Shown one piece after another: positions 25,639 through 44,718 of a DNA stretch of 64,000 bases (positions are counted from its first letter, which is position 1; each line of letters begins with the position of its first letter). The notes beneath the pieces are model-generated. The model was given only the letters and a program-made list of their open reading frames with translations. It had not been told where the DNA came from and did not search any database. Position numbers and translations under genes: made by a program. The stretch lies in IMG/VR virus record IMGVR_UViG_3300032092_000024, one strand, 5' to 3'. This stretch comes from an uncultured virus (IMG/VR IMGVR_UViG_3300032092_000024). Its lineage: Duplodnaviria; Heunggongvirae; Uroviricota; Caudoviricetes.

Positions 25639-25643
25639 ACACC

Positions 25644-25727
25644 ATAGTGGTCTTAATTAGTTAGAAGTCAATCCCCTCCGGCTGATTGTATTTTGTCCTT
25701 TACAGAAGTCAATTCAGTTGAGACACT
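25644..25727. promoter_or_regulatory. Divergent promoter cluster
   Basis: Minus: TTGACT-16-CACTAT (25671-25644) and TTGACT-16-TACAAT (25712-25685). Plus: TTTACA-17-GACACT (25699-25727). Confidence 0.55.
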
Positions 25728-25736
25728 GTACGGACG

Positions 25737-26812: not shown

Positions 26813-26823
26813 AGGAGACGCAG

Positions 26824-28266: not shown

Positions 28267-28925
28267 GAAACATCGCAATCGGAACTCCGTGCTATGGTGG
28301 CGTCACCGCCAACTACGCCAATAGTTTGGCCGCGTCGGTTAGCCTCTTTGCAAAGTACAACATAAACTTATTCCCAATCCTGCTCTCGCACCAATCAGTG
28401 ATTCAGATGGCCCGCAATAGGATGCTCAAAGAGATTATTATTTCTGACGCAGATGATCTTGTTTGGGTTGACTCTGATATTGGGTGGAAACCTGAGGATC
28501 TTCTTAAACTGTGCCTCCATGAGGAAGATGTGGTTGGGGCTACTTATCGCAAGAAGCTTCCAGACACAACCCACTTTACCCTAGTATTGTTCAAGGATAA
28601 GCAGATACCCGACGAGAGAGGACTGCTTGAGGTGTCCCGCCTTGGCGCCGGATTTTTGCGCATGTCCAAGAAAGCCATGCTCGAAGTATGTTCCACGGCC
28701 TCCGAATACCTTGAAGAGTCGGGCACCATTAAGAATGTATTTGAAGTGGGCGTCCGCAAGGGCGAATTCCTGTCCGAGGACTTCTTTCTTTGCGAGAAGC
28801 TGAAAGACCTAGGTTATAAGATAATGCTCGATACCAAGATTGATCTTACGCATGAGGGCACATTCAGCTACCGTGGGAGCATATCCCATTATCTTGAGTC
28901 CATCAAAATTAAAAAAGAAATTTAA
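28263..28925 (+). CDS. GT-A glycosyltransferase, paralogous to the N-domain of the upstream gene
   Basis: IGTPCYGG, ARN, WVDSD, GAGFL, SEDFF.C, H.G. Confidence 0.75.
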   Translation: MRNIAIGTPCYGGVTANYANSLAASVSLFAKYNINLFPILLSHQSVIQMARNRMLKEIIISDADDLVWVDSDIGWKPEDLLKLCLHEEDVVGATYRKKLPDTTHFTLVLFKDKQIPDERGLLEVSRLGAGFLRMSKKAMLEVCSTASEYLEESGTIKNVFEVGVRKGEFLSEDFFLCEKLKDLGYKIMLDTKIDLTHEGTFSYRGSISHYLESIKIKKEI

Positions 28926-29059
28926 TTTTTAAAATACATATAACCATAAATTGGGTCGCTGGGAGGGTGGGGGGAGGGGGAGTCCGTATAGTGTTATGTA
29001 GAACCCCACTACTAGCCCTATCGGGAAGGGTGGGGGGATGGATAATAGGAGACACTAAA

Positions 29060-29545
29060 ATGAGCAAATCAGAAACCCAAATCAAACCCTTATTCACCTT
29101 TGTCGAAGGCGAATCAGTTGTAACTCGTGAGGCAGGTATTAGCGAAAAGACAGGCAAACCCCTAGCCAAGCGAGAGTACGCCGTAAGCCAAGGCGTGCTG
29201 ATGGCGAACGGCCGACTTGCCCCTTCATCCGCATTAAAGAAGATGACGGATGCCAAGGGTAAGGAATTAGCGACCATTCAGGTTCAGCAGGTAAAGGCGT
29301 TCAGCAACTTTACCCAAGGGAGAATGACCGAAGCGGTTAATCGCATTACGGCGGGCGAGATGCAAGCAACCCAATGCCTTATTAAATTAGAGGAGGACGG
29401 CGTGACTCCTGCGGAATATGTTTTCCGCATTAAGACAGCGGGAGTTGGATTGCAGAAGGCGAAACTGGAAAAGGAATTGACCGACAAGGGACTGGATGCG
29501 GAGACTATCGCACTTGTTCTGAAACGGGCGTTCCCGAAAGCCTAA
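29060..29545 (+). CDS. First early-region protein, unknown function
   Basis: AGGAG SD, ATG 29060 (MSKSETQIK), followed by a terminator. Confidence 0.6.
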   Translation: MSKSETQIKPLFTFVEGESVVTREAGISEKTGKPLAKREYAVSQGVLMANGRLAPSSALKKMTDAKGKELATIQVQQVKAFSNFTQGRMTEAVNRITAGEMQATQCLIKLEEDGVTPAEYVFRIKTAGVGLQKAKLEKELTDKGLDAETIALVLKRAFPKA

Positions 29546-29555
29546 CGGCATAAGC

Positions 29556-29590
29556 GGTGGGGGGAGGGAAACCTCCCCCCATCCTTTTTT
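29556..29590 (+). terminator. Intrinsic terminator
   Basis: GGTGGGGGGAGG-GAAA-CCTCCCCCCATCC then TTTTTT. Confidence 0.85.
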
Positions 29591-29632
29591 ATCAAAAACC
29601 CCAACCCCTTTGAATCAATGATTCTTAGCTTA

Positions 29633-30094
29633 TCAAACATCGATGGCAGGCTTAACGACCGCAGCTTCATCGCTTCGAAGAACTGCGAGGTTAACGATTG
29701 TCTTGCCATTGCTTCCTTGATTCTGCGAAGCCAGTCCCAACGCGGGACGGGCTATGCGGTCAACTTTCTCGAGCACATCGATATGTTCACGCAATTCTTT
29801 TCTGGTTCCAGGCATCTCGGCTTCGAGGACGTCCAAGCTATGGTCGACTTGATTGCTGATACGCGACAGATATCTGGTCTGCTTACTCTCTGCACTTTGT
29901 GCAACACTTCTGTCGATTGCTGTACTAATCTGCACCAAGTTTGCATCCTTTCTCGCAACCCACTTACCTCGTCTGGCTTTACAAGACAAAGTGTTGAGGC
30001 TTATGCCATACGTCGATGCAATGAAGCTTCGAGTCTTACCTCCAACGAAGTCTCTTTCTACTGCTTTCCAGTCTATAGCCAAGGCTTTAGGCAT
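29633..30094 (-). CDS. Putative terminase small subunit (N-terminal HTH)
   Basis: IDWKAVERDF..G.....IA..YGIS..TL...ARRGKW followed by a helical region. Confidence 0.55.
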   Translation of the reverse strand: MPKALAIDWKAVERDFVGGKTRSFIASTYGISLNTLSCKARRGKWVARKDANLVQISTAIDRSVAQSAESKQTRYLSRISNQVDHSLDVLEAEMPGTRKELREHIDVLEKVDRIARPALGLASQNQGSNGKTIVNLAVLRSDEAAVVKPAIDV

Positions 30095-30100
30095 AAGGCT

Positions 30101-30129
30101 AGCTTATCTAGCATTGTGCATAAGGTCAA
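30101..30129 (-). promoter_or_regulatory. Leaderless-type promoter
   Basis: TTGACC-17-TAAGCT-6 nt-ATG. Confidence 0.6.
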
Positions 30130-30188
30130 GGCATCAATGATTCCTCGATTCGAGGATGCACCAACCCTAACCAAAGGAGTAACTACCA

Positions 30189-30761
30189 ATGAGTAACACA
30201 TACTTGCAGGACTTCGGACACCTGCGTAAACAAGCCAATGCACGGGACGTGCATGACCCTATGTCTAGTGCTGGACGATGGGATGACCTTCAACTGGACT
30301 TGCGTAGACCGCATATCCCGCAGGCTCGACGGGCGTCGATGCGTAAGAATCGGACACTCACTGTGGGGAATGTCACTGTCCCCCTGCCCATCGCGGATGC
30401 TGAGTTGAACAAGGCGTTAGGCTTCAAGGCTTGCACGGGCAGTCCCAAGTATGCCTTGAGTAACATGACCAGCGACAAGTGGGAGCATGCACCGCATGAT
30501 GCCAATGTGCGATGGTTGTTGCGCCGTGACCAGCAGGCCGAGGCCAAGATGCTCTCGTCCAACATCAACATCCATCAGACCTATGCCGAGCTGTTCGGTA
30601 GGCTGATTGCCAAGATGTGGTTCAACAATACTCCCAAGGCCCGCGGTGCATACGAACGGCAGTTCCGATTCCTTTGGCAGTATCGCCACTCCTTCAAGAA
30701 GATTCTTGGCAAGGCTGGCTACAGAACCAGAGGCTGGCGTAAGAAAGGGAAGATGCTGTGA
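30189..30761 (+). CDS. Early hypothetical basic protein
   Basis: AAGGAG SD. Confidence 0.55.
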   Translation: MSNTYLQDFGHLRKQANARDVHDPMSSAGRWDDLQLDLRRPHIPQARRASMRKNRTLTVGNVTVPLPIADAELNKALGFKACTGSPKYALSNMTSDKWEHAPHDANVRWLLRRDQQAEAKMLSSNINIHQTYAELFGRLIAKMWFNNTPKARGAYERQFRFLWQYRHSFKKILGKAGYRTRGWRKKGKML

Positions 30762-31009
30762 AGTGTGTCATCTGTGACGACCTTATCGAGGCCGAGCGTA
30801 TCAACCTAGGCTTCTCCAAGTGCAAAGGCTGTGCCTTCCTGCACCCTGAAGAGAAGGTCAAAGGTGCGATGGTCTACTCAGATAAGACTGGCGGGGCAAT
30901 CAATGTGATGAGTCCCGATAGCTTTGACAACTACAAACGAATTTCGCGCAGGGTCGGTCAGCGTTCGGCACTTCGGAATGTGCTGGACAATGGCGGTCGC
31001 TCGCAATAA
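30758..31009 (+). CDS. DksA/TraR-type C4 zinc-finger-like protein
   Basis: CVICDDLIEAER.......CKGCA. Confidence 0.55.
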   Translation: MKCVICDDLIEAERINLGFSKCKGCAFLHPEEKVKGAMVYSDKTGGAINVMSPDSFDNYKRISRRVGQRSALRNVLDNGGRSQ

Positions 31010-31029
31010 CCAAAAGGAGACACAATACA

Positions 31030-31155
31030 ATGCAAACTGAAACGGTAGATTGCCCCGTGTGCAAAGGCACAGGCTTGGATTGGAACAATGTATGGCCGAC
31101 TGGCATGGCCTCGCACTGCGAGGAATGCGATGGCTACGGGGAGGTAAACAAATGA
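31030..31155 (+). CDS. 41-aa DnaJ-type zinc-finger peptide
   Basis: Below the track cutoff. CPVCKGTG...CEECDGYG; AAGGAG SD. Confidence 0.6.
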   Translation: MQTETVDCPVCKGTGLDWNNVWPTGMASHCEECDGYGEVNK

Positions 31156-31301
31156 AGGGCAAGTGGAGAGTAGTGAATGGTGTGGGCAAGGTAATCCGAG
31201 CTGGATTCCTCACCGAACAAATGGCCTACAAGTGGATGCACGAACACAACAACGAACAGTCCAAGAGCTTTCACTTCTGGATTGTGGAGAAAACCCGATG
31301 A
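31152..31301 (+). CDS. Early hypothetical protein
   Basis: GGAGG SD, ATGA coupling. Confidence 0.5.
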   Translation: MKGKWRVVNGVGKVIRAGFLTEQMAYKWMHEHNNEQSKSFHFWIVEKTR

Positions 31302-31663
31302 GCGTGATACTACCAATCGATGCTTACATCCAACTCAACGGCATTGAGTACTACGGAAAGGTGGTCAAGGACGGAACCCGTAACCACCACCCTATGTCCG
31401 AGTATGTCGGCAAGCGTGTGTTTGATGTATCCAAGATTCAGTCAGACGAGTCATGGACTCATTGGTATGTCTTCGAATCCGAGATGCCATTGCCCAACTT
31501 CTATGACTCTACGTTCATTCACTCGCTGGACTATGCGAGCTGGATAGATGTGGACAGGGATGACTGCGACGCACCTGGACAGATGTTCAGACGCAGAGCT
31601 TACATCTCAAAGATGGGTCAGTGGAAGATGGTCATCACCCAAAGCGGAGGGAGGGACATATGA
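31298..31663 (+). CDS. Early hypothetical protein
   Basis: ATGA coupling. Confidence 0.5.
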   Translation: MSVILPIDAYIQLNGIEYYGKVVKDGTRNHHPMSEYVGKRVFDVSKIQSDESWTHWYVFESEMPLPNFYDSTFIHSLDYASWIDVDRDDCDAPGQMFRRRAYISKMGQWKMVITQSGGRDI

Positions 31664-31944
31664 GAGGTAGGTCTATCGACCCCAAGTATGTCATGACCAA
31701 TGCAGTCCAAGCTCACTATGGGCGAAGGCTGACTAGGAAAGACTGGGAAAGGAACGTCAAGATGGCCAGACGCACGAGCCGAACGACCCTCGCAATCAAG
31801 CGGAGCGAGGGCTTGGATTATCAGTATGCGTTGACTGATATTCATCGGAGCATCATCAAGAAAGTTATGATGACACCCGATGAAGCTTACAACCGAAACA
31901 AGGTAACCAAGAAGCTTGGGCTTGCTTGGGTTATGTGCGGATGA
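31660..31944 (+). CDS. Early hypothetical protein
   Basis: ATGA coupling. Confidence 0.45.
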   Translation: MRGRSIDPKYVMTNAVQAHYGRRLTRKDWERNVKMARRTSRTTLAIKRSEGLDYQYALTDIHRSIIKKVMMTPDEAYNRNKVTKKLGLAWVMCG

Positions 31945-32026
31945 GTGTCGAGCGAGTTAAATTGTGGATTTGGCTGGCTTGCCAGACTCCATCACCCAAG
32001 CTTTGGCACGGAAACAACTAGTCGAG

Positions 32027-32082
32027 TAGACCAACTGACCTGCTGCCCGCGGGCAGGTCAGAAGTCTGGCCGATAGGCTGGA
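32027..32082 (+). repeat. Structured intergenic motif, copy 1
   Basis: TAGAC, 9-bp hairpin, then AGTCTGGCCGATAGGCTGGA. Confidence 0.75.
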
Positions 32083-32123
32083 GAAAAAGATAGTTAACCT
32101 TAACAAAGAAAGGAACATTATAT

Positions 32124-32363
32124 ATGTTCTTTACAAATCGAAAAGACGGTGAAGTTACCATTGAAGTGAAGCAGGGCGTATCCTCGGACGGGAGTCTGAA
32201 CGGCCGCTTCTACACAGCCAGCCTCAACGGCTGGACTGGCGAAGGTTTGACAGAGCAGGATGCTGTGCGTGACCTCGACCAGAGTCGGGCAGAAGCTTTG
32301 ACCAAGCTTCATCACAACAACCGCGCATTCGGAACGCGTCTAAGCTTCGAGGTGGTCTCGTGA
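32124..32363 (+). CDS. Early hypothetical protein
   Basis: GAAAGGA SD. Confidence 0.55.
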   Translation: MFFTNRKDGEVTIEVKQGVSSDGSLNGRFYTASLNGWTGEGLTEQDAVRDLDQSRAEALTKLHHNNRAFGTRLSFEVVS

Positions 32364-32496
32364 GTTGGGCGGAGTTCTTTGAGGTGATGACAGTCATCAT
32401 CCAACTTGTCTGTGCGTTCCTAGTTATCCCAGCCTGCGTCGTGGCGGCTGTGATTCTAATCAACCGCCTTCTCAAGATGGCGTTGGAGGAAATCAG

Positions 32497-32850
32497 TTGA
32501 AACCTGGGGATAAGCTCTGGGTCGATGCCCAAATGATTGAGATCTTGAAGGGTCACAATCTTGGGCGGAAGTTTCGCCTCAACACTGGTGTGGCTGAGGT
32601 GGCTGGCGACATCTACCCCGACGACACCATTGTGCCCAATGAACTGAACGTAAAGATTGGTGACGCTCGATGGACAAAGCTTGCCTTGGGTGAGCTGGAA
32701 CGTCCGTGGCGTTACCCAACCTTCCGCCGTTTGCTTGCGGTTATCCGCTCGTGGACTGGAGACTGGTTGTTCCGTGCTCGCAAGCTCGAGCAGGGAATCG
32801 ACATCGAAGAAACAATCAACAATGAGGAGAACGACAATGATCAAAGTTAA
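32497..32850 (+). CDS. Early hypothetical protein
   Basis: GGAGG SD, TTG start. Confidence 0.45.
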   Translation: MKPGDKLWVDAQMIEILKGHNLGRKFRLNTGVAEVAGDIYPDDTIVPNELNVKIGDARWTKLALGELERPWRYPTFRRLLAVIRSWTGDWLFRARKLEQGIDIEETINNEENDNDQS

Positions 32851-33022
32851 GCTTGGTTGGGGGTGGATGCGTTTCCACTTCTTCGGGAACAGATTCAACA
32901 ATGCCATCGTGGCTAACGTGGAGTTTCGGCCTCTCGGCTTTGAACTCTACCGCGGTAGTCATTCGGTAATGATCTACTTGGAGCTTGTCATCGGCACGCT
33001 GATGATCAAGTTGAGCAAATGA
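32837..33022 (+). CDS. Early hypothetical protein
   Basis: GAGGAG SD. Confidence 0.45.
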   Translation: MIKVKLGWGWMRFHFFGNRFNNAIVANVEFRPLGFELYRGSHSVMIYLELVIGTLMIKLSK

Positions 33023-33405
33023 GTTACCCCATTGAAGTCGTGGCCGAGAAGGGAGCGCTCCAGCGCAGGCTTGGGCTGACTCCTATCGACCGAACCACAA
33101 CCGCAGACTTCCCGAAAGGGAAGATAACTATTAGAACAAACAGAGTTCCAACCTTATCAGAGGGCGGAGCTTATGCGTTCTACTACACCGACCACGAAGG
33201 TGATCGGTCAGTGTGTCACGTTGGGCCCGTGTACCGATACACAAGTCATGGGAGAACTGCCAGTGATGAGATGTATTATCACTTCAATTCTGGTTGCTTG
33301 AGGAAAACTCAACTCGATGCGTTTGTCACAACCATCAAGGCCATCGAAGCCAAAGTCGATGCCCTTATGAGAAAGGAATCCAATGGCTACCAAGACGAAA
33401 TCTAG
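33019..33405 (+). CDS. Early hypothetical protein
   Basis: ATGA coupling. Confidence 0.5.
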   Translation: MSYPIEVVAEKGALQRRLGLTPIDRTTTADFPKGKITIRTNRVPTLSEGGAYAFYYTDHEGDRSVCHVGPVYRYTSHGRTASDEMYYHFNSGCLRKTQLDAFVTTIKAIEAKVDALMRKESNGYQDEI

Positions 33406-33718
33406 TAAGAAGAATCTAACCAAAGACCAGCTTAATAGACTCAAGGTGCTGGACTTCATCGACATCTACGCTGACGACGAGCACAAGGAAAACATCATCC
33501 TACTCGATGGCTTGGACAAAGCTTTCCTCGGGCTTTCCCATCGAGATGGACAACACGGAACACAAGTGGCGGTGTATGGAATCTTTTCCTGCATCCACAC
33601 ACTTCAACTCGACAACAAGTGGAGTTGGGATGAAGCTGAAGAATACTTCCACTTCAATACCCGCTGGGCTTATGTTGGCGAGTATACCCCGATGTTCATC
33701 GAGGAGATGGTGCGATGA
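33383..33718 (+). CDS. Conserved hypothetical phage protein
   Basis: DGLD.AFLG...VAVY...EA.EYF.FN...AYVGE.TP pattern. Confidence 0.6.
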   Translation: MATKTKSSKKNLTKDQLNRLKVLDFIDIYADDEHKENIILLDGLDKAFLGLSHRDGQHGTQVAVYGIFSCIHTLQLDNKWSWDEAEEYFHFNTRWAYVGEYTPMFIEEMVR

Positions 33719-33963
33719 CTGCCAAGCTGACACCTCAAGAGATTAGGCAAGGCGACACCGTGTGGTGGCGCGGAAGCTTTGGCAACGAGGGATGGCAAGA
33801 GGCGAAAGTCAAACGCATCGAACTCGTTCGTCCAGGTGAGAAAGAAAATGGACTCCTTGTGCCTTGGGTGCCTACAACCATTATCGAGAACTGTGTTTTC
33901 GATTTGGACAATGGGCATTGGGCATATGGATATCAAATCAAACCAGTGGAGGAAACACTATGA
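33715..33963 (+). CDS. Early hypothetical protein (SH3-like)
   Basis: GDTVWWRGSFG...DNGHWAYGYQI. Confidence 0.55.
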   Translation: MTAKLTPQEIRQGDTVWWRGSFGNEGWQEAKVKRIELVRPGEKENGLLVPWVPTTIIENCVFDLDNGHWAYGYQIKPVEETL

Positions 33964-34343
33964 GCGGATTAGCTAAAGAACCAGATAACTTCACAATCCC
34001 AAAGAAACTGATGGACGAGGCGGTAGATCGTGAGCTTGCAAAACTAAAGAGAATAGAGAAGAGTACTGACGCTTGGGTTAAGCAGTGCAAGAAAGACGGT
34101 ATAATTGTTCTTAAACGACGATATGTCGATGAGAATAGATGCCTCATCAATCGCATTGTTGATGTCAGTTCTCTTGAGATTGACGGTGTCGATTATCGGG
34201 ACGCTCCAGACTTCTGCGATGCCTTCTTCAGTGCTGGCCAATATGAGGACGGCACTGTGATGGGCGACGACGAACTTAACGAGCTAGCCGACGAGCACCC
34301 CGATATTCTGGCAGAGAAGATCTACCACCACGCGATGCCCTAA
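33960..34343 (+). CDS. Early acidic hypothetical protein
   Basis: IDGVD.RD.PDFCDAF motif; GGAGG SD. Confidence 0.55.
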   Translation: MSGLAKEPDNFTIPKKLMDEAVDRELAKLKRIEKSTDAWVKQCKKDGIIVLKRRYVDENRCLINRIVDVSSLEIDGVDYRDAPDFCDAFFSAGQYEDGTVMGDDELNELADEHPDILAEKIYHHAMP

Positions 34344-34454
34344 AGGAGGACATATGACAGAAGCTCAACAGAAAGAAATTTTGGCTAGAATCACCATTGA
34401 TGAATGGCTAGGCAAGATGGAAAACGAACGAAAACTAAACGAAAGGAAGACATC

Positions 34455-34757
34455 ATGAAAAAGAAAAAAGCAAAGGTAACAGAGAGAGTTATGACGATCG
34501 ACAGGAAAGACGGAAACCTCAACGGAGTTCCATTTATTCAGTTCCTTGTAGCGATGCAAGGTCTGGAAGCTTTGAATCGTGGAATGATGTTGACTCGAGT
34601 CGCAACCCCAAGTCGCTGTATGGAAATCATATCGCAGATAACGGGCAATAAATACAAACGAACCGACAGGAACAAAGCGTTGTACGATGCGGAAGTAATC
34701 ATGCATGCGCTTCGTGAAGAGAAGAAACAACTAGCTCAGGACGCGGCACTCGCATGA
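34455..34757 (+). CDS. Early hypothetical protein
   Basis: GAAAGGA SD. Confidence 0.5.
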   Translation: MKKKKAKVTERVMTIDRKDGNLNGVPFIQFLVAMQGLEALNRGMMLTRVATPSRCMEIISQITGNKYKRTDRNKALYDAEVIMHALREEKKQLAQDAALA

Positions 34758-35080
34758 GAATCGAAGTCGAGAAGGATGATGTTAAGTTCGAATACGACGG
34801 CAAGAAGTATTCGGTAACTGGCACAGCCATCCACAATACCGAGAAGGAAGACATCGGTATTGGTTCTTATGAGTTCTGGGGTTCGCGTGGTTATGACAGC
34901 CAGATTGTCAACCAAAGCGAGTTCTCGGAATGTGAGTTCGATAGCTTGGCAATCTATCCAGACGAGGGGATGGAAGAAGTTCCAGAACCTTCTAAGGAAC
35001 TTGTCGAGGCTGCGCAGGAAGCTCTGTATTCCGCGACCTACGAAATCGCGGAAGAACGGGCTGTCGAGTTAAGCGACTAA
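34754..35080 (+). CDS. Early highly acidic protein
   Basis: D/E-rich; GIGSYEFWG motif. Confidence 0.55.
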   Translation: MRIEVEKDDVKFEYDGKKYSVTGTAIHNTEKEDIGIGSYEFWGSRGYDSQIVNQSEFSECEFDSLAIYPDEGMEEVPEPSKELVEAAQEALYSATYEIAEERAVELSD

Positions 35081-35094
35081 GAAAGGAGGTTTGT

Positions 35095-35286
35095 ATGGCA
35101 AAGTTCAAATTAGAAATCGAAAGCAATAACGCGGCGTTCGAGTTTCCAGATCATGAAATATCAAGGATTCTCAAAGACCTGTCTGAACAGGTCGCTGAAA
35201 CTCCTTTGCATGTTTGGAGGAGACACGAATTCCTTATTCGGGATACGAATGGGAACAGAGTAGGCACTGCAAATTGGTCTAGATGA
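35095..35286 (+). CDS. Early hypothetical protein
   Basis: AAGGAGG SD; NAAF...RD.NGN.VG. Confidence 0.55.
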   Translation: MAKFKLEIESNNAAFEFPDHEISRILKDLSEQVAETPLHVWRRHEFLIRDTNGNRVGTANWSR

Positions 35287-35336
35287 CAGACCCTCGTGGC
35301 CTCGCAAGGGCCACGCAGTCTGGCCGATAGGCTGGA
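35287..35336 (+). repeat. Structured intergenic motif, copy 2
   Basis: CAGAC, a different hairpin, then the identical AGTCTGGCCGATAGGCTGGA. Confidence 0.75.
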
Positions 35337-35368
35337 ACCAAACGAAAACAAAAATGAAAGGACACAAT

Positions 35369-35686
35369 ATGGAACTAACAATACCATCAGAAGTGGTAGA
35401 TGAGTTCGGTCGGGCGACCGAGTGGCTCAAGCTATCCAATGAGAAACGCAAAGAGTATCGGAGTCTATTCCTAGAATCCGCGAAGCAAGGAATCAAAAGC
35501 TGGGTAGGCCAGCACTTCACGGTTCAGATGGATGAGCACGATAAGGCAAGACTTGCCAAACCTTTGCTCAAATCAAACCTGCTCAAGTATCTGACGCCAG
35601 AGCAAGTCAACCACATCATCGAGACTTCAACAGTCTCGAGCGAAGAGTGGCACTTTACGGCGCGAAGGATTCCGACAGGTGAGTAA
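35369..35686 (+). CDS. Early hypothetical protein
   Basis: GAAAGGA SD before ATG 35369. Confidence 0.5.
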   Translation: MELTIPSEVVDEFGRATEWLKLSNEKRKEYRSLFLESAKQGIKSWVGQHFTVQMDEHDKARLAKPLLKSNLLKYLTPEQVNHIIETSTVSSEEWHFTARRIPTGE

Positions 35687-35888
35687 CGCTGTAAAGATTG
35701 CAGACGAGATAACAAAGTGGGATGGCTACGCTTTGTTTGACAAAGACAATGTATTACTCAACGACCAGTTATTCACGCACTACGAACGGGCAAGGAAAAT
35801 TGCTTCCTGTTACGAGAACGATGAAGCCATCATCTGGAAAGTTGAACTGAACAGAAAGGAAAAAGTCAATGATAATTACGTCATCTAG
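35679..35888 (+). CDS. Early hypothetical protein
   Basis: Operon-contiguous. Confidence 0.4.
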   Translation: MSNAVKIADEITKWDGYALFDKDNVLLNDQLFTHYERARKIASCYENDEAIIWKVELNRKEKVNDNYVI

Positions 35889-38211
35889 AAACACGCCAGT
35901 ATCAAGCGGGGTTACCGACACGATCGACTACAAGATCGATGTGTCCAATCTCGGTCATATCGCCAGTATCCTACGCAAAGCTTACTCTGACCCGATCAGA
36001 GCGGTTGTGCGTGAATATGGCACCAATGCCTGCGAGGGTCACATCCTCAATGGTAAAACCAACAAGCCCATCCAAGTCTCGCTTCCGACTGGTATGAAGC
36101 CAGTCTTCACGATTCGTGACTTCGGCCCTGGACTTGGCAAAGAGAAGTTCCAAGAGTTGTTCTGCTCGTATGGTGGTAGCGACAAGCGGGCAAGCAACGC
36201 CTTCACGGGCTGTCTTGGTATCGGTTGCAAATCGTATGGTGCCTATACGGATGCCATCACGGTAACCGATTACAACGGAGTTACCCCCCACAAAGACGGA
36301 GTCAAGCGTATCTGGAATTGTCACATCGATGAGAGTGAGGTGGGCAAGGCATCGCTGTTAAGCGAGACCAAGACCAACGAACCCTCTGGTGTTGAGATCT
36401 CGATTCCAGTTCGGCCTCAAGACATTAGTAGATTCCGCGAAACTGCGATGCAAGTCTATCGTGTCTTTGATGTCCGTCCCGACATCGTTAACCTATCGCC
36501 AGAAGAGAAGAAAGCATATGCCACTCAGACATACAAGGATGGCATCATCAAAGGAATCAACTGGTCTTTCAATGGCGAAGGTAACAGCTGGCTCCAAATG
36601 GGTCTTGTGCTTTATCCGCTCAAGTCCGACTTCTCTGGCTCACCAGTAATCAAGCAGTTGATTGACGCTGGAGTCTACGTGAGGGTCGATCTTGGCGATG
36701 TCCAAGTCGCTCCGTCTCGTGAGGACTTGCAGTATTCGCAGAAGACAATCCAAGGCTTGGTCAAGCATCTCAATCCAGTCATTGACTCGATGGGGTCGAC
36801 CTTGCTTGCCGACATTCAAGCGGCTCCAGATTACTTCCAAGCTCACTTGATCTTGAGGAAGTTCACTGGCACTGGTGGATATAGTTCTTCCAGCTTCCGT
36901 GAAGGCATCGTCAAGAAGCTGAAAGGCAAGCTGAAGTGGAGGGGAATCGATATGCATGAGGATAATAGAATTCCTTTGTGTGCATCACCACTTGCGAAAG
37001 ACCAAACTGAAACCGAGTTACTTAAGTCTCACGGTATCAGCGTCATGCGTCTAAGCAAGCGAAGCTGGGGTAAGGCTAAGTTCAATGTTGATCGTGAGGT
37101 CGACGAACTGATGGTTAGCAAAGACTCAATCGTAATGGTCAACGATACTGGCACTGGTTCAGGTGAAGCTCGCGTTCGTCACTGGCTGATAAACGGCGGG
37201 CCATCTGGAGCAGATGTAACTATCATCAACTACAAAAACGGTGGCAAGGAGTTCCTTAACAAGACTCTCCCGTGGTTTGTAACGATGACATTCCAACAGG
37301 TGTCGTCTCTGCCCGTGCCACCACCGAAACAGAAAGGCGTAGATGCCGACGGAGTTGAGATTGAATACGACAAGAATGTCAAGCACACCAAGGGGAATGT
37401 GTTTGGCTTGCTTGTCAAGTATCAACGCGCAGACAAGCGTAGTGACTATTGGGGAATCTCCGCAGCACCTACGACTGGCAAGAAAGTCTACGTAACACTC
37501 GACCAATTCAAGTGGTCAATGCCTGGTAAGGACTTGGAGATGGAGGAGTATTACCCTCTGTATCGAGCAAGAGATTACTTGAAGGCAATCGGCTATTGTG
37601 ATCAAGTCTATGGCGTGAAGGAAGCTGATATCGCCAAGAAGGTTGATGCAACTTGGACTAAATTACAGGATGCAATCGAGGAGGGGACAAGAGCCTTCAT
37701 CAAGGCTAACCCTGACAAGGCTCAGAAGATTGCTGATCGTTATGCTGTCTTGAGTTTCTTCAACGCTCGAAGGTCATACGACAGCGATCGGCTTAGGAAA
37801 GAAGGCTGCTTCTTTGAGCGATGCTCGCTTGGTCGTTGGGCAAATTCCAAGATTGGTCCACTCAAAGACGTCAAATCCGACAGCCCATTCCGAATCTTTA
37901 TGGATAAGGTTATGGAGATGGTTGGAGGATGCTTAGAAGAAGGAGATAAAGACTTGCCAGTCTGGCTTGAAGAGCCGAGGAATACTTGGGCTCTTGGCCG
38001 ATCAAACACCGATGATAAGAAGAGTGTATATCAACAACTCAAAGCGTTGTTGCCTAAACCTTCTTATGATCTAAAAGTCGAGGGAACTAAAATAGCTTCG
38101 AGGTATCCATTACTTTGCCACAGTAACTGGCAATCAGATGTAATGGAATATCCAACCGAACACACTGTCGAGTATGTGCATCTTGTAGATGCAGCTCGCA
38201 AAACAAAATAA
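35869..38211 (+). CDS. rIIA: RIIA-like protein (N-terminal GHKL ATPase)
   Basis: YSDPIRAVVREY..NA...H, IRDFGPGL, S.KR, G.LGIG.KS; followed by rIIB. Confidence 0.85.
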   Translation: MIITSSRNTPVSSGVTDTIDYKIDVSNLGHIASILRKAYSDPIRAVVREYGTNACEGHILNGKTNKPIQVSLPTGMKPVFTIRDFGPGLGKEKFQELFCSYGGSDKRASNAFTGCLGIGCKSYGAYTDAITVTDYNGVTPHKDGVKRIWNCHIDESEVGKASLLSETKTNEPSGVEISIPVRPQDISRFRETAMQVYRVFDVRPDIVNLSPEEKKAYATQTYKDGIIKGINWSFNGEGNSWLQMGLVLYPLKSDFSGSPVIKQLIDAGVYVRVDLGDVQVAPSREDLQYSQKTIQGLVKHLNPVIDSMGSTLLADIQAAPDYFQAHLILRKFTGTGGYSSSSFREGIVKKLKGKLKWRGIDMHEDNRIPLCASPLAKDQTETELLKSHGISVMRLSKRSWGKAKFNVDREVDELMVSKDSIVMVNDTGTGSGEARVRHWLINGGPSGADVTIINYKNGGKEFLNKTLPWFVTMTFQQVSSLPVPPPKQKGVDADGVEIEYDKNVKHTKGNVFGLLVKYQRADKRSDYWGISAAPTTGKKVYVTLDQFKWSMPGKDLEMEEYYPLYRARDYLKAIGYCDQVYGVKEADIAKKVDATWTKLQDAIEEGTRAFIKANPDKAQKIADRYAVLSFFNARRSYDSDRLRKEGCFFERCSLGRWANSKIGPLKDVKSDSPFRIFMDKVMEMVGGCLEEGDKDLPVWLEEPRNTWALGRSNTDDKKSVYQQLKALLPKPSYDLKVEGTKIASRYPLLCHSNWQSDVMEYPTEHTVEYVHLVDAARKTK

Positions 38212-38233
38212 AAAACGAAAGGACACAGTAAGT

Positions 38234-39085
38234 ATGAACTACATCATAACTGACGAAACAATAACAGCGGTCATCAACGGGAAGTCTTACACTCTCCGTC
38301 GTGACCACGCAAATGCAAAGATGGTAATTAACGCGATCGCAGAAGGTCGCGCGGAGGGTGACATCGAGGAATTGATGGACATCACCAAGGCACTCAATGC
38401 GTACCTTGGAAACTCCGTTGAAGTCAAAGACGGTTCGGTGTATCACCGCGGTGAGATCGTTGACGAGCGTATTGCCAGGCGAATCCTCGCCTTTATGGAG
38501 GAGAGTCTACCAGTGGAACCGATGACTCGGTTCTTGGAGAATCTCTACAACAACCCGAGCCACAATAGTCGCGCTCAACTCTACCAGTTCTTGGAGCACA
38601 AGAACATGCCTCTTACTGAAGATGGCTGTTTCTTGGCCTACAAGTCGGTTGACCAAGACTATATGGACCACCACACTGGCAAGTTCTCTAACCGAGTCGG
38701 CCAGGTGTTGAGCATCGCTCGTCGCAGTGTGGACGACAATCCCGAGAACGGATGTTCTTACGGATTCCACGCTGGCTCGCTCGAGTACGCCAGCAACTTC
38801 GGTGGTGGCGATCGTCGGGTCGTGATCGTCAAGATCAACCCCGAGGATGTGGTATCGGTGCCCAATGACTGCGGGTTCCAGAAGCTTCGTACTTCCAAGT
38901 ACGAAGTTGTTGCGGACTACACGGGGCCGTTGCCCAAGACGTACGCAGAAACGTACGACTCCACCGAGGACGACATCTACGATGAGGAAGATGTTGAGAC
39001 TGATGAAACTGACAGCGATGACAGCCTTGTCACGGCCATCCGTGCCGCGGCTCATCAGTTGCTTGACGCAGTATCGAATCGCTAA
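38234..39085 (+). CDS. rIIB: RIIB-like protein
   Basis: DGCFLAYK.V, CSYGFH.G...Y, VKINP.DVVSVP.D...KLR..KYEVV. Confidence 0.9.
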   Translation: MNYIITDETITAVINGKSYTLRRDHANAKMVINAIAEGRAEGDIEELMDITKALNAYLGNSVEVKDGSVYHRGEIVDERIARRILAFMEESLPVEPMTRFLENLYNNPSHNSRAQLYQFLEHKNMPLTEDGCFLAYKSVDQDYMDHHTGKFSNRVGQVLSIARRSVDDNPENGCSYGFHAGSLEYASNFGGGDRRVVIVKINPEDVVSVPNDCGFQKLRTSKYEVVADYTGPLPKTYAETYDSTEDDIYDEEDVETDETDSDDSLVTAIRAAAHQLLDAVSNR

Positions 39086-39091
39086 CCATTC

Positions 39092-39120
39092 GGGGCGGGT
39101 GGGCAAATCCCACTCGCCCC
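39092..39120 (+). other. Strong intergenic hairpin without U-tract
   Basis: GGGGCGGGTGGG-CAAAT-CCCACTCGCCCC after the rIIB stop. Confidence 0.55.
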
Positions 39121-39135
39121 ATCTGAAAGGAAATT

Positions 39136-39375
39136 ATGATCTACACGAAAAAAGAATTGAGAGACAGGGTTGCTGCTATGGACTCGAAGGAAATCTGCTA
39201 CGCCTTGATTTGGACGCAAGATGAATTCGATGGTTATTTCAATGACCAACAGATTAGCAAAAGTGATTGGGAGTCCGCGCTTAGTAGCATTGATTCCGAA
39301 AGCGAAGAACAATCTGTCAAAGAAAATATCGAAATGGAAATCCAAAACCTAATTGATGAAAAGGAGACTGCATGA
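39136..39375 (+). CDS. Early acidic hypothetical protein
   Basis: GAAAGGA SD. Confidence 0.5.
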   Translation: MIYTKKELRDRVAAMDSKEICYALIWTQDEFDGYFNDQQISKSDWESALSSIDSESEEQSVKENIEMEIQNLIDEKETA

Positions 39376-39647
39376 TTGAAGTCGAATATAAAGGTAAACA
39401 AGCCAAAAATATAGCGGGGACTAAGTCCCCCTATGGATTAGGCTGGCACAAAGAGGATGCGTCCATCATCGAATCATTGAAGCTTCGAGGCGGAGATGCC
39501 ACGATACTTCTACCCGAATGGTGCGAGGCAACTGGATTGGACAGCAATAGCAATCTGGTTCGCAAGGAACGATTCGAAGGTAAGAAACCCTGGAGTCAAA
39601 AAGATGAGAACAAAAAAATCTACACTCGTGAGCTCAGACTTGCTTAA
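39372..39647 (+). CDS. Early hypothetical protein
   Basis: AAGGAG SD, ATGA coupling. Confidence 0.45.
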   Translation: MIEVEYKGKQAKNIAGTKSPYGLGWHKEDASIIESLKLRGGDATILLPEWCEATGLDSNSNLVRKERFEGKKPWSQKDENKKIYTRELRLA

Positions 39648-40470
39648 ACTTAATCGCGGTAACGCGAAGCTGGGGCGAGACATCTGGACGTTCAGCCTAC
39701 CCGCAGGGTTCTCCTGCCCAGGCGCGCTGGAGTGTTTGTCCAAAGCCAATCGAGAGACGGGCAAGATCACGGACGGTGCCGACACCAAGTTCCGTTGCTT
39801 TGCCGCATCCGACGAGGCTCAGTACAAGAACACGCGGTTGCAGAGGTGGCACAACTTCGAGTTGCTGAAAGGCAAATCGACAGCCGAGATGTCCGAACTG
39901 ATTCAAGCAAGTCTCCCAAGACAAGCTGGTATCATTCGGGTTCACGTATCGGGTGACTTCTTCAACCAGTTCTACTTCGATGCGTGGATGCATGTGGCCA
40001 GATGCCAGCCACTCCGCACCTTCTACGCCTATACCAAAAGCTTACCCTTCTGGGTTAGACGTATTGGGGACATCCCAAAGAACTTCGCCCTTAACGCAAG
40101 TCGAGGCGGGGCACACGATGAACTGATCGCCAAGCACGACCTTAAGTATGCAGAGGTTGTGTACAGCTACGAAGAAGCGAAGGCCAAGAGACTGGAGATT
40201 GACCACGACGACAGCCATGCTTACAAGTCTGGCAAGCCGTTCGCGTTGCTCATCCACGGGACACAGCCCGCGGGTAGCATCGCGGCTAAGTCGTTGTCTG
40301 CCCTTCGCAAGATCGGGTGGACAGGTTACAGCAGGAAGGTGGCGTTGGCCTTGATGATTGCCAATCTATGCATTGACGCAGTTCCCTATGAGTTCTGGCC
40401 CGTGTGGGCCAGGCCCGGGAATGAGTGGATAATCAAGCATCGAGTTCTGACTTGTCAGAACCACGCGTGA
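39604..40470 (+). CDS. Gp88-like (radical-SAM-related) protein
   Basis: GNAKL, FSLPAG.SCP...C...CFA, RVHVSGDF, YAYTK. Start uncertain. Confidence 0.7.
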   Translation: MRTKKSTLVSSDLLKLNRGNAKLGRDIWTFSLPAGFSCPGALECLSKANRETGKITDGADTKFRCFAASDEAQYKNTRLQRWHNFELLKGKSTAEMSELIQASLPRQAGIIRVHVSGDFFNQFYFDAWMHVARCQPLRTFYAYTKSLPFWVRRIGDIPKNFALNASRGGAHDELIAKHDLKYAEVVYSYEEAKAKRLEIDHDDSHAYKSGKPFALLIHGTQPAGSIAAKSLSALRKIGWTGYSRKVALALMIANLCIDAVPYEFWPVWARPGNEWIIKHRVLTCQNHA

Positions 40471-40479
40471 AAGGAATAT

Positions 40480-40698
40480 ATGAGTCTAATAAATAGAGCA
40501 TCAGTTAAGCGGTCGGCTCTGGACATGGCGAATGCCAAGTTCAAGGAGCGTAATAAGACGAGGCTGGAAATGGGGCTTGCCCCTACGAAGTCTGCCCCGT
40601 CGAGAGTTAGTAGTGAGTTCATCGATACCTTCGAAGCCAAGGTCATTGGCTTGTTGGGTTCTATGGTTCACGAACACAAGTCAGGAGCAACACTATGA
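40480..40698 (+). CDS. Putative histone-fold protein
   Basis: LIN...VK..AL ... RVS.EFID.....V..L....V......TL pattern. Confidence 0.45.
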   Translation: MSLINRASVKRSALDMANAKFKERNKTRLEMGLAPTKSAPSRVSSEFIDTFEAKVIGLLGSMVHEHKSGATL

Positions 40699-40855
40699 GT
40701 AAAACAAAAACAATAACACCAAGGATGGTTGAGGATTGGTTAATAGAAATGGATGATGTCTATTACATTTTAGCCGATATAGCCAATGGCAAAATCAAAC
40801 CATCAGAGTTAAAGTCAGACATTTCAATCTATATAGATAACGAAAGGAGCTCACG

Positions 40856-41080
40856 ATGAATTGTTATTGTATTACAAAACCAACGGAACAAAAGTTCTTG
40901 TCAATCGACGAGAAGTGGGTGGACTTTATCACGGGTATCCGTAATGACTCCATCCGAGGCTATACCTCTGAGGAGATGGAAGCCTTGAACAACGATGCAA
41001 CGAAGCATGGAGGCGAGGTGCGACAGCATCCGTCTCCCGACGGAGTCACACTCCCCTTGTTTTATGACTGGGGTACGTGA
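40856..41080 (+). CDS. Early hypothetical protein
   Basis: AAGGAG SD. Confidence 0.45.
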   Translation: MNCYCITKPTEQKFLSIDEKWVDFITGIRNDSIRGYTSEEMEALNNDATKHGGEVRQHPSPDGVTLPLFYDWGT

Positions 41081-41702
41081 AGTATTTGAGGGACTGAAGT
41101 CCCGAGAGGTCAGCCGTTACGTCAACTACTGGGACAAGATTAAGCCCAAGTCCCGCAGTGACGAGTGGCGCTTCTGGGTCTTCTCGATTCTCGCAGCCAA
41201 CTTCGGTTGGAAGCAGAACGTGAAGGCATTTAACGCAATCAAAGACCGCGACTCGTGGAAGTCCGATATGGGTAAGCTACAGTTCGAGCTGTACAAAACC
41301 AAGACTGGACTGTGGAGGACGAAAGCCGTGAGCATCTGGAAGTTTGACCAGATGTTCCAGGCCAAGCCCCACATCTTCGAGCGCTATGCCAACGAGCCGT
41401 TGACGCAATACCGTGATAGGATTGCGGACAACGTCCCAGGATTGGCGATTGCAAAGTCGAGCTTCTATGTGGAGATGAAGCACCACGAAGAGTCAGACGT
41501 TGTCTGTCTCGATCGTCGTGTGCTGAAGTCCATCCACAAGAGGGAAAGAACAGTGAACAGGACTGATTATCTCGCGCTTGAGAACGAGTGGCAGACCTGC
41601 TCAAAGGAATACGGTATCCCAGTGGCTACCGCCAGGTTCATCTGGTGGGATAAGTTGCAGGGGTATAAAAATAGTCGGTACTGGAGTGAGGCATTAGAAT
41701 GA
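41064..41702 (+). CDS. HhH-GPD DNA glycosylase, Ogg2-like
   Basis: FSILAAN, HhH-like NVPGLAIAKSS, VCLDRR, YL.LE, FIWW. Confidence 0.6.
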   Translation: MTGVREVFEGLKSREVSRYVNYWDKIKPKSRSDEWRFWVFSILAANFGWKQNVKAFNAIKDRDSWKSDMGKLQFELYKTKTGLWRTKAVSIWKFDQMFQAKPHIFERYANEPLTQYRDRIADNVPGLAIAKSSFYVEMKHHEESDVVCLDRRVLKSIHKRERTVNRTDYLALENEWQTCSKEYGIPVATARFIWWDKLQGYKNSRYWSEALE

Positions 41703-41917
41703 CAACAACAATCAATGGTTCATTTGTCTGGGGCGCAGACGATAGTCTCTTTGAGATTAAGTTTGACGCAGATGTGGACAAACAAGAGAAGGTGGTTACT
41801 TCGATGCATTTGCATCTGAAGCCAGATCACTTAGATAGAATCCTGCAAGACGTATATAAGACAGGCGAACGAGAAGCCCTTCGGTTAGCGTTGAAGCAGG
41901 AGGCTAATGAAAGTTAA
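41699..41917 (+). CDS. Early hypothetical protein
   Basis: ATGA coupling. Confidence 0.45.
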   Translation: MTTTINGSFVWGADDSLFEIKFDADVDKQEKVVTSMHLHLKPDHLDRILQDVYKTGEREALRLALKQEANES

Positions 41918-42111
41918 TAAAGTAATTCGATTCATCATATTGATTCTATATACTGTGTTCCTTGTGAACGGAGTATTGGTGACTGGAACGGGTGTATTCT
42001 ATGGCGTCTGCTATTTATATACCTCAACGATTAAGAAGGTGTGTAACAAAATTAACCCGATGATTCGGGTCTAAAAGTTCTCACCTATCCACGTTTCGAA
42101 GTCATCTAATT

Positions 42112-42221
42112 TATTCCCGAGTTCCCCAGGGGTGATGATACCGAGAGAACAAGCACGCGCAAATTGTAAAATATCCGTGACTTGTTCTGGAAGTATCGCC
42201 AACTCTGGGGACTCGGGAATA
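42112..42221. other. 110-nt imperfect long hairpin
   Basis: TATTCCCGAG(T)TCCCCAG / CTGGGGACTCGGGAATA outer arms; AGAACAAG-CACG / CGTG-A-CTTGTTCT inner arms. Confidence 0.65.
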
Positions 42222-42336
42222 TTTTTTGTCACAATTTTATCCTTCTACCTATAAGTATACACACAGTTTTAATAATTGAAAGCGTGACGAGGCACGTAAG
42301 CCAAATAATATCACGCTTTGTGTTCCTCATTTTCCC

Positions 42337-42381
42337 ATTTTGTCCCAGCCATATTGACTTGGCAAGCCCGCCAGTCAGCAT
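42337..42381. promoter_or_regulatory. Overlapping divergent leaderless-type promoters
   Basis: Plus: TTGACT-16-CAGCAT-6-GTG(42388). Minus: TTGCCA-17-CAAAAT-6-ATG(42330). Confidence 0.5.
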
Positions 42382-42387
42382 TGAATT

Positions 42388-42648
42388 GTGCCAAAGAAGC
42401 TAGCAGAAGCAAAGTTTAACGAACTTTCCGAACAGTTCCTCCGTGTATTACTCGCCGCAGCTGCGGTCGATGGTAAATCGGAAGAGCTGGTTATTACCCG
42501 CAAGGCTTTCCATGATCTCCATCAGAAATTAAAGGATGGCTACAATCCAGAGATAGATGTTTGGTTTGAAGACAATGAGCTTCACATTGCTTTAGCCTGG
42601 AGCGAAGTTCCGATTATCGGTTTTAGAAAAATTCGTGGCCAAAAATAA
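42388..42648 (+). CDS. Hypothetical protein
   Basis: ORF with its own promoter. Confidence 0.5.
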   Translation: MPKKLAEAKFNELSEQFLRVLLAAAAVDGKSEELVITRKAFHDLHQKLKDGYNPEIDVWFEDNELHIALAWSEVPIIGFRKIRGQK

Positions 42649-42756
42649 AAAGAAAAAGGTTAAGAGCTTGATCGATCACTCGCATCGACCACGCCAGGGC
42701 CTGCTCGACAAGGTTGCCAAGCTGGCGTTATACCACAAGAATTAGTGCCTGGGGTA

Positions 42757-42897
42757 TTAATACTTACCCAATCCCCGACCCGTGTTAGAAACCTTAGGCA
42801 TTACGTAAGGCTTTTTCTTTTCAATCTTAAGGGAAGGCGACTTGTCAGTCGGCATCTTTGCGTTCTTTTGGTTTAAGTTGATAGAGTAGTTCTTCAT
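42757..42897 (-). CDS. Small basic protein ending GLGKY
   Basis: ATG 42897 directly after the upstream stop. Confidence 0.5.
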   Translation of the reverse strand: MKNYSINLNQKNAKMPTDKSPSLKIEKKKPYVMPKVSNTGRGLGKY

Positions 42898-42898
42898 A

Positions 42899-43114
42899 TT
42901 ATTTACCTTTCGATTTACCGGCTGCGCGGGTAGATTGCTCTGCCACAATAGAGTCATATTCAGCCATCCTCTTTCTGGCCGTGCCGGCGGGAGCTCTCCC
43001 CATCTGCTCATCTAGCTCAGCATATTCAGCTGCTCGCTGAGCCGCTATTTTACGCTTTTCGTACTCAGCATATAGTTCGCTGGTATTAGCAGATACATTT
43101 TTTCCTAGAGGCAT
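42899..43114 (-). CDS. Small protein starting MPLGK
   Basis: AGGAG SD; MPLGKNVSANTSELY. Confidence 0.6.
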   Translation of the reverse strand: MPLGKNVSANTSELYAEYEKRKIAAQRAAEYAELDEQMGRAPAGTARKRMAEYDSIVAEQSTRAAGKSKGK

Positions 43115-43126
43115 ATGATTAAACTC

Positions 43127-44485: not shown

Positions 44486-44517
44486 GGTTTTTATATTACA
44501 AATTTAGGTTGAGTAGG

Positions 44518-44718
44518 TCAAGGCTTCTTCTCTAGAATGTCCTCAACGCCGTCCGAATCTTTGTCCTTAAAGTTTGAGGGATCGCGGGTAAAGATCTTCT
44601 TGGCTAACATGTACTTCTCTTCGGCAGACATCTCTGTCCACGATTCGGTCTTACCCCTTGGCTTCCAGAGGATTAGGATTACTACTATCCCAACAAAAAA
44701 TATAACGGGCCAGAACAT
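44518..44718 (-). CDS. Small membrane-anchored protein
   Basis: N-terminal TM; C-terminal DKDSDGVED Ca-binding-like loop. Confidence 0.5.
   Translation of the reverse strand: MFWPVIFFVGIVVILILWKPRGKTESWTEMSAEEKYMLAKKIFTRDPSNFKDKDSDGVEDILEKKP

Follow-up and report, generated by a model that had tools for sequence, protein, structure and literature searches.

Why should a phage genome in which the word CCGG is common carry a stretch of about 14 kb that is nearly free of it? The question is raised by a 64,000-nucleotide sequence of an uncultured virus of the Caudoviricetes (IMG/VR record IMGVR_UViG_3300032092_000024), the whole of which is called the window here; it represents most of a circularly assembling genome of about 69 kb. 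The initial annotation of the window had pointed to this CCGG-free zone, which it placed in the early region, and had suggested that the segment enters the host first and is exposed there to a CCGG-recognising defence, and that an early or ejected protein then shields the site-rich remainder. We find that the zone is real, that a second word is missing from it and that the same compartment has been purged of other words in some distant relatives.

A zone purged of two words

An exact count gives 183 CCGG in the window, of which a single one, at 40415, lies between those at 28648 and 42918. The zone described in the initial annotation was therefore seen correctly, and the local counts given with it, eight sites in 1-1000 and eight in 26800-28651, are also exact. 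The zone is as follows:

28652-42917, all real coding on the + strand: purged zone with one CCGG and no GGATC/GATCC

It makes up 22% of the window and about 20% of the genome, and the remaining ~55 kb has sites at about normal frequency; outside the zone 182 CCGG were observed and 203.5 expected, a ratio of 0.89. Inside the zone 29.4 CCGG are expected from a second-order Markov model, 52.2 at the rate of the rest of the window and 40.8 from 100 dinucleotide shuffles, the lowest of which had 26. Synonymous-codon shuffles, which keep every protein and could be applied to 12,924 of the 14,266 nt of the zone, gave 27.9 +/- 4.1 sites when done 300 times per gene (minimum 17) and 31.2 when pooled (minimum 20). 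Among the 136 strand-symmetric 4-mers CCGG is the one most depleted in the zone (binomial p 4.8e-19).

An unbiased scan of 5-mers brought out a second word, GGATC with its complement GATCC, which is absent from the zone and occurs 78 times outside it, 43 times in one orientation and 35 in the other. The gap spans 28496-44579, its left edge agrees with that of the CCGG gap to within ~150 bp, and codon shuffles expect 19.1 +/- 4.0 occurrences in the zone with a minimum of 10 in 300. That an asymmetric word is avoided in both orientations and that the left edge is shared suggest that whatever reads these words reads double-stranded DNA. Both are classic Type II targets, CCGG of enzymes of the HpaII/MspI type and GGATC of Type IIS enzymes of the AlwI/BinI type. 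When six genomes are taken together, the ratio of observed to expected for the remaining fifteen 4-base palindromes also changes in steps. It is 0.96-1.00 over the 6 kb that precede the zone, 0.69-0.86 within the zone and 0.95 beyond it, going from 0.96 to 0.70 on entering the zone and from 0.81 to 0.95 on leaving it. No genome-wide depletion of palindromes was found in the window or its clade.

The composition of the zone is slightly different from that of the rest, with fewer A-runs and a GC content 1-3 points higher; at 0.47-0.51 the GC content is not below that of the rest of the window. Every control, whether it preserves codons, follows a Markov model or shuffles dinucleotides, expects 13-41 sites, so that the purge is accounted for neither by codon use nor by composition. 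The initial annotation had reached the same view of codon usage by another route, namely that the zone also contains a minus-strand gene resembling TerS (32224-32907, 227 aa). That argument fails because this open reading frame (ORF) is spurious and non-coding: against four relatives its substitutions are distributed 35/31/30 over the codon positions, 61-67 of the 76-83 changed codons are non-synonymous, new stops appear in the relatives, the overlapping plus-strand frames show third-position bias, and there is no family match. The point that the purge is not the codon usage of one strand is properly made by the codon-preserving shuffles.

The zone in close and distant relatives

A TerL search of IMG/VR gave 55 loci at 87-100% identity. 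Four close relatives, G001-G004, are near-complete (68.4-70.5 kb) and are 78-97% identical to the window in nucleotides in shared blocks. The syntenic gap is kept in seven of the seven genomes or loci of the close clade, that is, in these four and in three further loci. In the four genomes the gaps are:

G001: CCGG gap of 16,054 bp; GGATC gap of 16,036 bp
G002: leakier zone; CCGG gaps of 8,646 and 2,677 bp
G003: CCGG gap of 16,349 bp; GGATC gap of 17,007 bp
G004: CCGG gap of 14,434 bp; GGATC gaps of 11,498 and 3,527 bp

Where the zone can be aligned (~10.3-10.8 kb), 9.8-11.3% of positions in these relatives are not as in the window, and as a null the same substitutions were placed randomly in 200 simulations per relative. 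Random placement creates 14.0-17.3 CCGG per relative (minimum 3-7) where the real numbers are 0, 0, 5 and 1, and it creates 7.9-9.2 GGATC where the real numbers are 2, 0, 2 and 2. In a control region, 6252-21500, real and random placement both give 48-53 CCGG. Blocks of the zone that are non-homologous between relatives, swapped-in genes among them, are also site-free, and all seven of the contigs with an rIIA at least 89% identical have site-rich remainders. Since too few new sites have appeared compared with random placement and the control region is neutral, the substitution pattern tells us that the purge is actively maintained by ongoing selection and is not a relic.

Another IMG/VR sequence, G005 (81,730 bp), wraps around by 12.6 kb and has two rIIA copies that are 92% and 98% identical to that of the window. 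Its end repeat was considered as a terminal repeat and rejected, as the copies have diverged and do not coincide with the edges of the zone; G005 probably mixes the assemblies of more than one strain. The 123-bp overlaps by which G001 and G003 close were also rejected as termini, being assembly closures whose start points differ. No cultured relative was found by megablast with the zone and with the giant gene described below or by tblastn with TerL, and rIIA is less than 35% identical to that of any deposited phage.

The TerL family is large: a cut-off of E <= 1e-10 gives 560 proteins, and IMG/VR has 572 confirmed stretches, of which 14 whole genomes and 4 loci were examined. Ten near-complete distant genomes, with TerL 42-70% identical, were scanned with all 4-6-mers and simple degenerate palindromes for the largest gap, and three of the ten have a strong zone purged of other words:

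G010 (TerL 54%), 23562-36938: CCGG 0, GCGC 0, CTNAG 0, GGNCC 0, GCSGC 0, ACNGT 1 and GGATC 3; the Markov model expects 14-37 of each
G011 (TerL 49%), 46724-61679: CCSGG 1 (24 expected) and GTAC 1 (26 expected)
G013 (TerL 42%), 35971-44948: GTAC 0 (26 expected)

These zones occupy the syntenic place, after the block of helicase, DNA polymerase and p728 and before the giant-protein gene, and outside them the same words occur at 0.61-1.23 of expectation. Word sets of restriction type that differ by lineage and lie in the same compartment are what host-driven restriction avoidance predicts, and judging from these genomes no restriction-independent explanation would account for them easily. A gap of 14,434 bp is found in both G004 and G010; this is a coincidence, as the pair shares no megablast similarity.

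The same phage family has genome-wide as well as zone-limited avoidance. CCWGG occurs 0-1 times in G010, G011 and G013 where 77-108 are expected; many 6-mers are avoided genome-wide in G011, G013, G014 and G015, with up to 15 palindromic words, mostly 6-mers, absent in G011; and ACGT is depleted genome-wide in G008 and CASTG in G009.

Edges, genes and the giant protein

The edges of the zone are sharp, and both lie at non-coding sequence. The elements concerned are:

28926-29059, + strand: conserved non-coding boundary element of 135 nt, preceding the first zone gene (ATG at 29060)
42648-42917, no strand: right zone edge, at the junction of converging blocks; the + block ends at 42648, the - block ends at 42757 and CCGG resumes at 42918
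24113-24568, both orientations: non-coding G-box cluster with 7 copies of GGGTGGGGG, a GT-repeat and an AT-rich stretch, 4.4 kb before the zone

The start of the zone is marked by a G-rich box, GGGTGGGGG, within a run of four G-tracts. The boundary element has two such boxes, at 28961-28980 and 29024-29042, 63 bp apart, and the one strict four-G-tract motif of the window lies here. The box is also found at the zone start in G001 (54512), G002 (62104), G003 (1637), G004 (68091) and G010 (23562), where it is the sole copy in 80 kb. G013 has two boxes 68 bp apart on the gene strand, ~750 bp upstream of its zone, and G011 has boxes ~0.3 and ~1.2 kb upstream and another at the far zone end. Restriction-type sites keep their normal density until 73-320 bp short of the box, where they cease; in the window the last CCGG is 317 bp and the last GGATC 469 bp ahead of the boundary element. 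A consensus fold of this element is not convincingly supported by covariation (2 of 12 pairs). The right edge in G010 is an intergenic gap near 37.3 kb, and no element shared by the right edges was found. The cluster at 24113-24568 is conserved in G001-G004; from its make-up it may be an origin, an iteron array or a protein-binding array that shares its word with the zone boundary.

The genes of the zone are mostly small:

29060-42648, + strand: zone genes, ~28 mostly small ORFs that include those below
29060-29545, + strand: first zone gene, 161 aa, without family match; unrelated first genes take its place in close relatives
29556-29583, + strand: strong terminator-like hairpin directly after the first zone gene, 12 pairs and then a T run, its stem from a G-box-like word
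29618-35888, + strand: small-ORF array in which the Pfam and PHROG matches are only to two PHROG families of unknown function
34754-35080, + strand: acidic 108-aa protein, isoelectric point (pI) 4.12, net charge -19, 26% aspartate plus glutamate; conserved in the clade
35869-38211, + strand: rIIA-like protein (PHROG 612, E 7.6e-87)
38189-39085, + strand: rIIB-like protein (PHROG 609, E 5.3e-71)
39136-39375, + strand: acidic 79-aa ORF, pI 4.13
39496-40470, + strand: GP88-family gene (PF17338, E 2.7e-38), which carries the single CCGG of the zone (40415)
40995-41702, + strand: HhH glycosylase-like protein (PF22175 Ogg-HhH, E 1.5e-9)

The first ~2.5 kb of the zone differs among close relatives, and zone genes are frequently swapped between relatives. 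The GP88 allele of the window is 77% identical to that of G002, 74% to those of G007 and G009 and 34-35% to those of G001, G003 and G004, and by this comparison the CCGG-bearing allele looks like a cassette that was swapped in recently. For the product of the first zone gene, the AlphaFold model is unusable (predicted local distance difference test, pLDDT, 43.3). The initial annotation had named acidic early ORFs as candidate DNA mimics. Their acidity is real at 34754 and 39136, but no DNA-mimic fold was found when the AlphaFold model of the 108-aa protein (pLDDT 70.8; residues 31-56 poor) was compared with the PDB, which gave no match at E <= 0.001; homologues of this protein occur only within this phage group (17 proteins). 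The protein atlas had nothing for the two proteins tried, the first zone gene product and the 108-aa protein, and the PHROG and Pfam scans found no nuclease family in the zone. The rII genes of T4 are early. From the gene content of the zone (small ORFs without known function, rIIA and rIIB), its position and its high turnover between relatives, we infer that the block is of early type.

Around the zone the window is arranged as follows:

1-12263, - strand: virion and lysis genes, ending with TerL (10530-12263)
12327-28925, + strand: replication and recombination genes, with RusA, helicase, PD-(D/E)XK exonuclease, family A DNA polymerase and a DUF5906 protein
Later part of this block up to 28925, + strand: trypsin-PDZ protease, a ferredoxin-like PHROG and two phrog_1574 paralogues, one with a glycosyltransferase-2 (GT2) domain
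42757-64000, - strand: virion genes, which include the 4288-aa ORF
46667-59533, - strand: 4288-aa polyvalent-type protein with ART-PolyVal and an AAA_34 P-loop, and hydrophobic stretches in its C-terminal part

The phrog_1574 paralogues (26824-28925) are directly upstream of the zone and 34.5% identical to each other, the first of them (26824-28266) having the GT2 domain; relatives have a single divergent copy at this location. A weak match to the N-terminal domain of dATP/dGTP diphosphohydrolase at 15951-16253 (E 9.5e-4) is below the cut-off, with 19.5 bits vs 27. In the late block a PD-(D/E)XK endonuclease (981-1373, - strand; PDDEXK_5, E 2.3e-13) lies beside an endolysin-like gene. The scan of the window found no tRNAs, and there was no match to an Rfam family. 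As the initial annotation had noted, the window has no methyltransferase: none was found among its 81 ORFs or among 7 ORFs in the portion of G001 that is missing from the window.

The giant gene lies within the minus-strand virion block, beside glucosaminidase-like and pilot-like genes. ART-PolyVal was found at residues 2496-2654 of its product (32.6 bits, cut-off 31.2) and AAA_34 at 1450-1638 (28.9 bits, cut-off 27), so that several unrelated effector domains are joined in one giant polypeptide, as in polyvalent proteins. It has no PHROG match, sequence searches of the PDB with four pieces gave nothing, and no methylase or methylase-helicase pair of the DarB type was detected in it. Among G001-G004, whose TerL is 91-97% identical, the giant protein is only 30-37% identical in amino acids, and the region 42.9-63.2 kb has almost no nucleotide similarity to the close relatives; this is a hypervariable virion module. 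Iyer et al. (2017, PMC5512222) propose that polyvalent proteins are injected together with the DNA to counter restriction. By its domains and its place, the giant protein is a candidate co-injected virion protein and a candidate shield of the remainder.

Explanations for the purge and known systems

The purge is very probably restriction-site avoidance confined to a block that is exposed early. Host Type II enzymes reading CCGG and GGATC would meet the unprotected DNA of the zone, and selection would remove every such site in the exposed block. If this is the case, then the site-rich remainder of ~55 kb must be shielded by the time it becomes accessible. A link between the zone and staged delivery, or delayed exposure of the remainder, is something we consider reasonably probable. 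Taken as a whole, the explanation that we prefer and think probable is that an early-type block is exposed unprotected to host Type II restriction, with two-step delivery as the most likely mechanism. In a pause-type delivery of this kind about one fifth of the genome, between the G-box (28.96 kb) and the junction (42.65-42.9 kb), would be in the cell first, and zone products, possibly with the co-injected giant polyvalent protein, would neutralise restriction before the remainder becomes accessible. Uniform depletion without a gradient fits better with such a segment, exposed whole for a time as in T5, than with slow reeling-in. The idea in the initial annotation of restriction acting on one exposed segment has gained from the purge, from selection, from the second word on both strands and from the syntenic replacement of words; its order of entry goes beyond these observations and is put here only conditionally. 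More tentative still, and rather doubtful in all its parts taken together, is the picture of a family of freshwater phages of ~65-80 kb with two-step delivery, in which the G-quadruplex-type box would act in cis as a terminus or injection stop delimiting the first-step DNA and a multi-enzyme shield of a kind not yet known, possibly involving the polyvalent protein, would cover the remainder.

Several observations weigh against the preferred explanation. Neither leaky sites nor palindrome depletion form a gradient along the zone, and the direction of entry cannot be read from them. Seven of the ten distant relatives (G006-G009, G012, G014 and G015) have no clear zone for 4-5-mers, and since several relatives avoid 6-mers and CCWGG genome-wide, protection of the remainder is not universal. 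No RNA polymerase family was found among the 81 ORFs of the window and no homologue of a known anti-restriction protein in the family scans, and sigma-70-like promoters are not in excess (18 found vs 20.2 +/- 4.6 in shuffles). Contigs bridge both zone edges (X1, 26811-30040; X5, 42268-43609). The circular assemblies leave permuted ends possible, and headful packaging with random ends would mean that there is no first-entering segment. The sequence is listed in 20 runs, the majority labelled freshwater or lake metagenomes; all are contig sets, and four of them, placed along the window, gave neither ends of molecules nor a step in depth.

Depth in the zone is 11.7-17.1 in X1 vs 14.6-15.1 outside, which is no doubling; this is a crude measure, as contigs cannot show the ends of molecules. 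Ends of short IMG/VR contigs cluster at window positions 12240-12407 (12 of 39) and 6461-6560 (~10 of 39). They were rejected as termini because they spread over ~150 bp and pile up from both sides, and they probably arise because the conserved TerL-portal block assembles apart from strain-variable flanks. TerL relatives occur on contigs binned with metagenome-assembled genomes of Verrucomicrobiota, namely Luteolibacter (55% identity, 71-kb contig) and Opitutae (41%), and also in bins of Altibacter, Blastopirellula and others, which is a weak host hint at best.

An explanation without staged entry is also to be considered, in which the whole genome enters at once and only the early block has to remain intact and naked for its expression, the rest being coated in cis by a co-injected virion protein in the manner of P1 DarB or its cuts being repaired after early and recombination functions have been produced. 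The giant protein with ART-PolyVal and AAA_34 adjoins the zone and is hypervariable, as arms-race proteins are; the phage also encodes RusA, helicase and the PD-(D/E)XK exonuclease, and permuted ends would be compatible with this explanation. We nevertheless consider it unlikely, because naked DNA with ~180 CCGG sites would soon be cut, because a coat that ends exactly at a 135-nt intergenic element and at an intergenic junction is without known precedent, and because the giant protein has no detected methylase or DarB-type pair. Davison's idea about A1 of T5 (10.1101/866236) leads to a different explanation, that early nucleases produced or brought in by the phage itself cut CCGG and GGATC so as to destroy host DNA and that the zone avoids these words on their account. 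It would agree with the sharing of CCGG and GGATC between the window clade and G010, whose TerL is 54% identical, and with the many zone ORFs that have no recognisable family, restriction-like nucleases being hard to detect. However, about seven specificities would be required in G010, the word sets vary by lineage as host repertoires do, no nuclease family was found in the zone by the PHROG and Pfam scans, and the remainder would still have to be absent or shielded. This makes self-avoidance very unlikely.

Even less credence can be given to a protective base modification that is present on the remainder but not on the zone. The GT2-domain protein and its paralogue just upstream of the zone, and the weak diphosphohydrolase-like match, could be called in its support, but the scans found no base-modifying enzyme family, the DNA assembled normally from many runs, and we know of no example of region-limited DNA modification, no search for one having been made. 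The zone might finally be a historical mosaic, a block derived from a lineage that avoids these words genome-wide, with the gap as a relic without function. Its slightly different composition and the frequent swapping of its genes would be expected of a mosaic. We regard this as the least credible explanation of all, since new sites do not accumulate at ~10% divergence while the control region is neutral, since swapped-in non-homologous genes are site-free too, and since the remainders are site-rich in every one of the contigs with a closely similar rIIA.

The restriction of first-exposed DNA is known experimentally in T5- and T7-like phages, and here it would be legible from the sequence of an uncultured family without its host. 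Both edges are located to within 100-300 bp, each lineage has a word set of its own and selection is ongoing. These features open the way to computational prediction of the DNA that is exposed first, of the location of a genome end or stop signal, and of the restriction specificities of hosts. In the more tentative picture of a two-step family, the list of purged words would be a direct read-out of the Type II restriction repertoire of each host. The small early genes and the one giant virion protein would be the places to seek a broad inhibitor of Type II restriction, whose mechanism is unknown even in T5. Outside subscription journals, no paper was found on this phage family or on the G-rich boundary element.

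The closest comparison is with T5. According to two reports (PMC10644984; Davison, 10.1101/866236), T5 and BF23 are restricted solely through sites located in the first-step-transfer DNA, CRISPR is likewise limited to first-step-transfer sites in T5, and the protection of the remainder is given there as unexplained. As in T5, a minority segment is site-free and the remainder has sites (here 1 vs 182 for CCGG and 0 vs 78 for GGATC), the segment is packed with small genes whose function is unknown, its border has a non-coding repeat element that is conserved, and what protects the remainder is without explanation. Unlike the T5 segment, which is ~8% of the genome and lies in a ~10-kb terminal direct repeat, the zone is ~20% of the genome and has no doubling of depth, by the crude measure above. 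Families like A1 and A2 were not found in PHROG and Pfam scans of 43 ORFs in the zone and its right flank, in which no targeted search for A1 or A2 was included and which matched only rIIA/rIIB, GP88, Ogg-HhH and families without known function. The border element is a G-rich box here and arrays of DnaA boxes in T5, DnaA boxes not having been searched for in the window; and two-step transfer is known for T5, whereas here only the sequence has been read. The push-pull entry of phi29, in which the first part is passive and the rest needs an early protein, is a further analogue.

According to a report on Autographiviridae (PMC12455610), the Type I system Mme2I restricts a T7-like Murciavirus only through motifs in the part that is injected early. 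Its authors put forward as a general idea that restriction filters work on the segment injected first, and they describe the early-injected part as highly variable and thought to encode anti-defence genes. The zone resembles such a leading region in that its first ~2.5 kb is variable among close relatives. It differs in that no phage RNA polymerase or Ocr-like protein was detected, in that the words are of 4-5 bp and of Type II kind and not a bipartite Type I motif, and in that the purge is uniform with two step-like edges and not graded. With classical genome-wide avoidance the zone shares short words, palindromic or of Type IIS kind, that are avoided on both strands beyond what codon use explains, and the genome-wide form is itself present in relatives G008-G011 and G013-G015, but avoidance in the window is limited to 22% of the sequence. 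The giant multidomain protein, with ART-PolyVal and an SF2-type P-loop module among virion genes, is like polyvalent proteins and P1 DarB; unlike them it has no detected methylase domain and is known from its gene alone. Thus, the zone works like the T5 and T7-like systems but belongs to neither.

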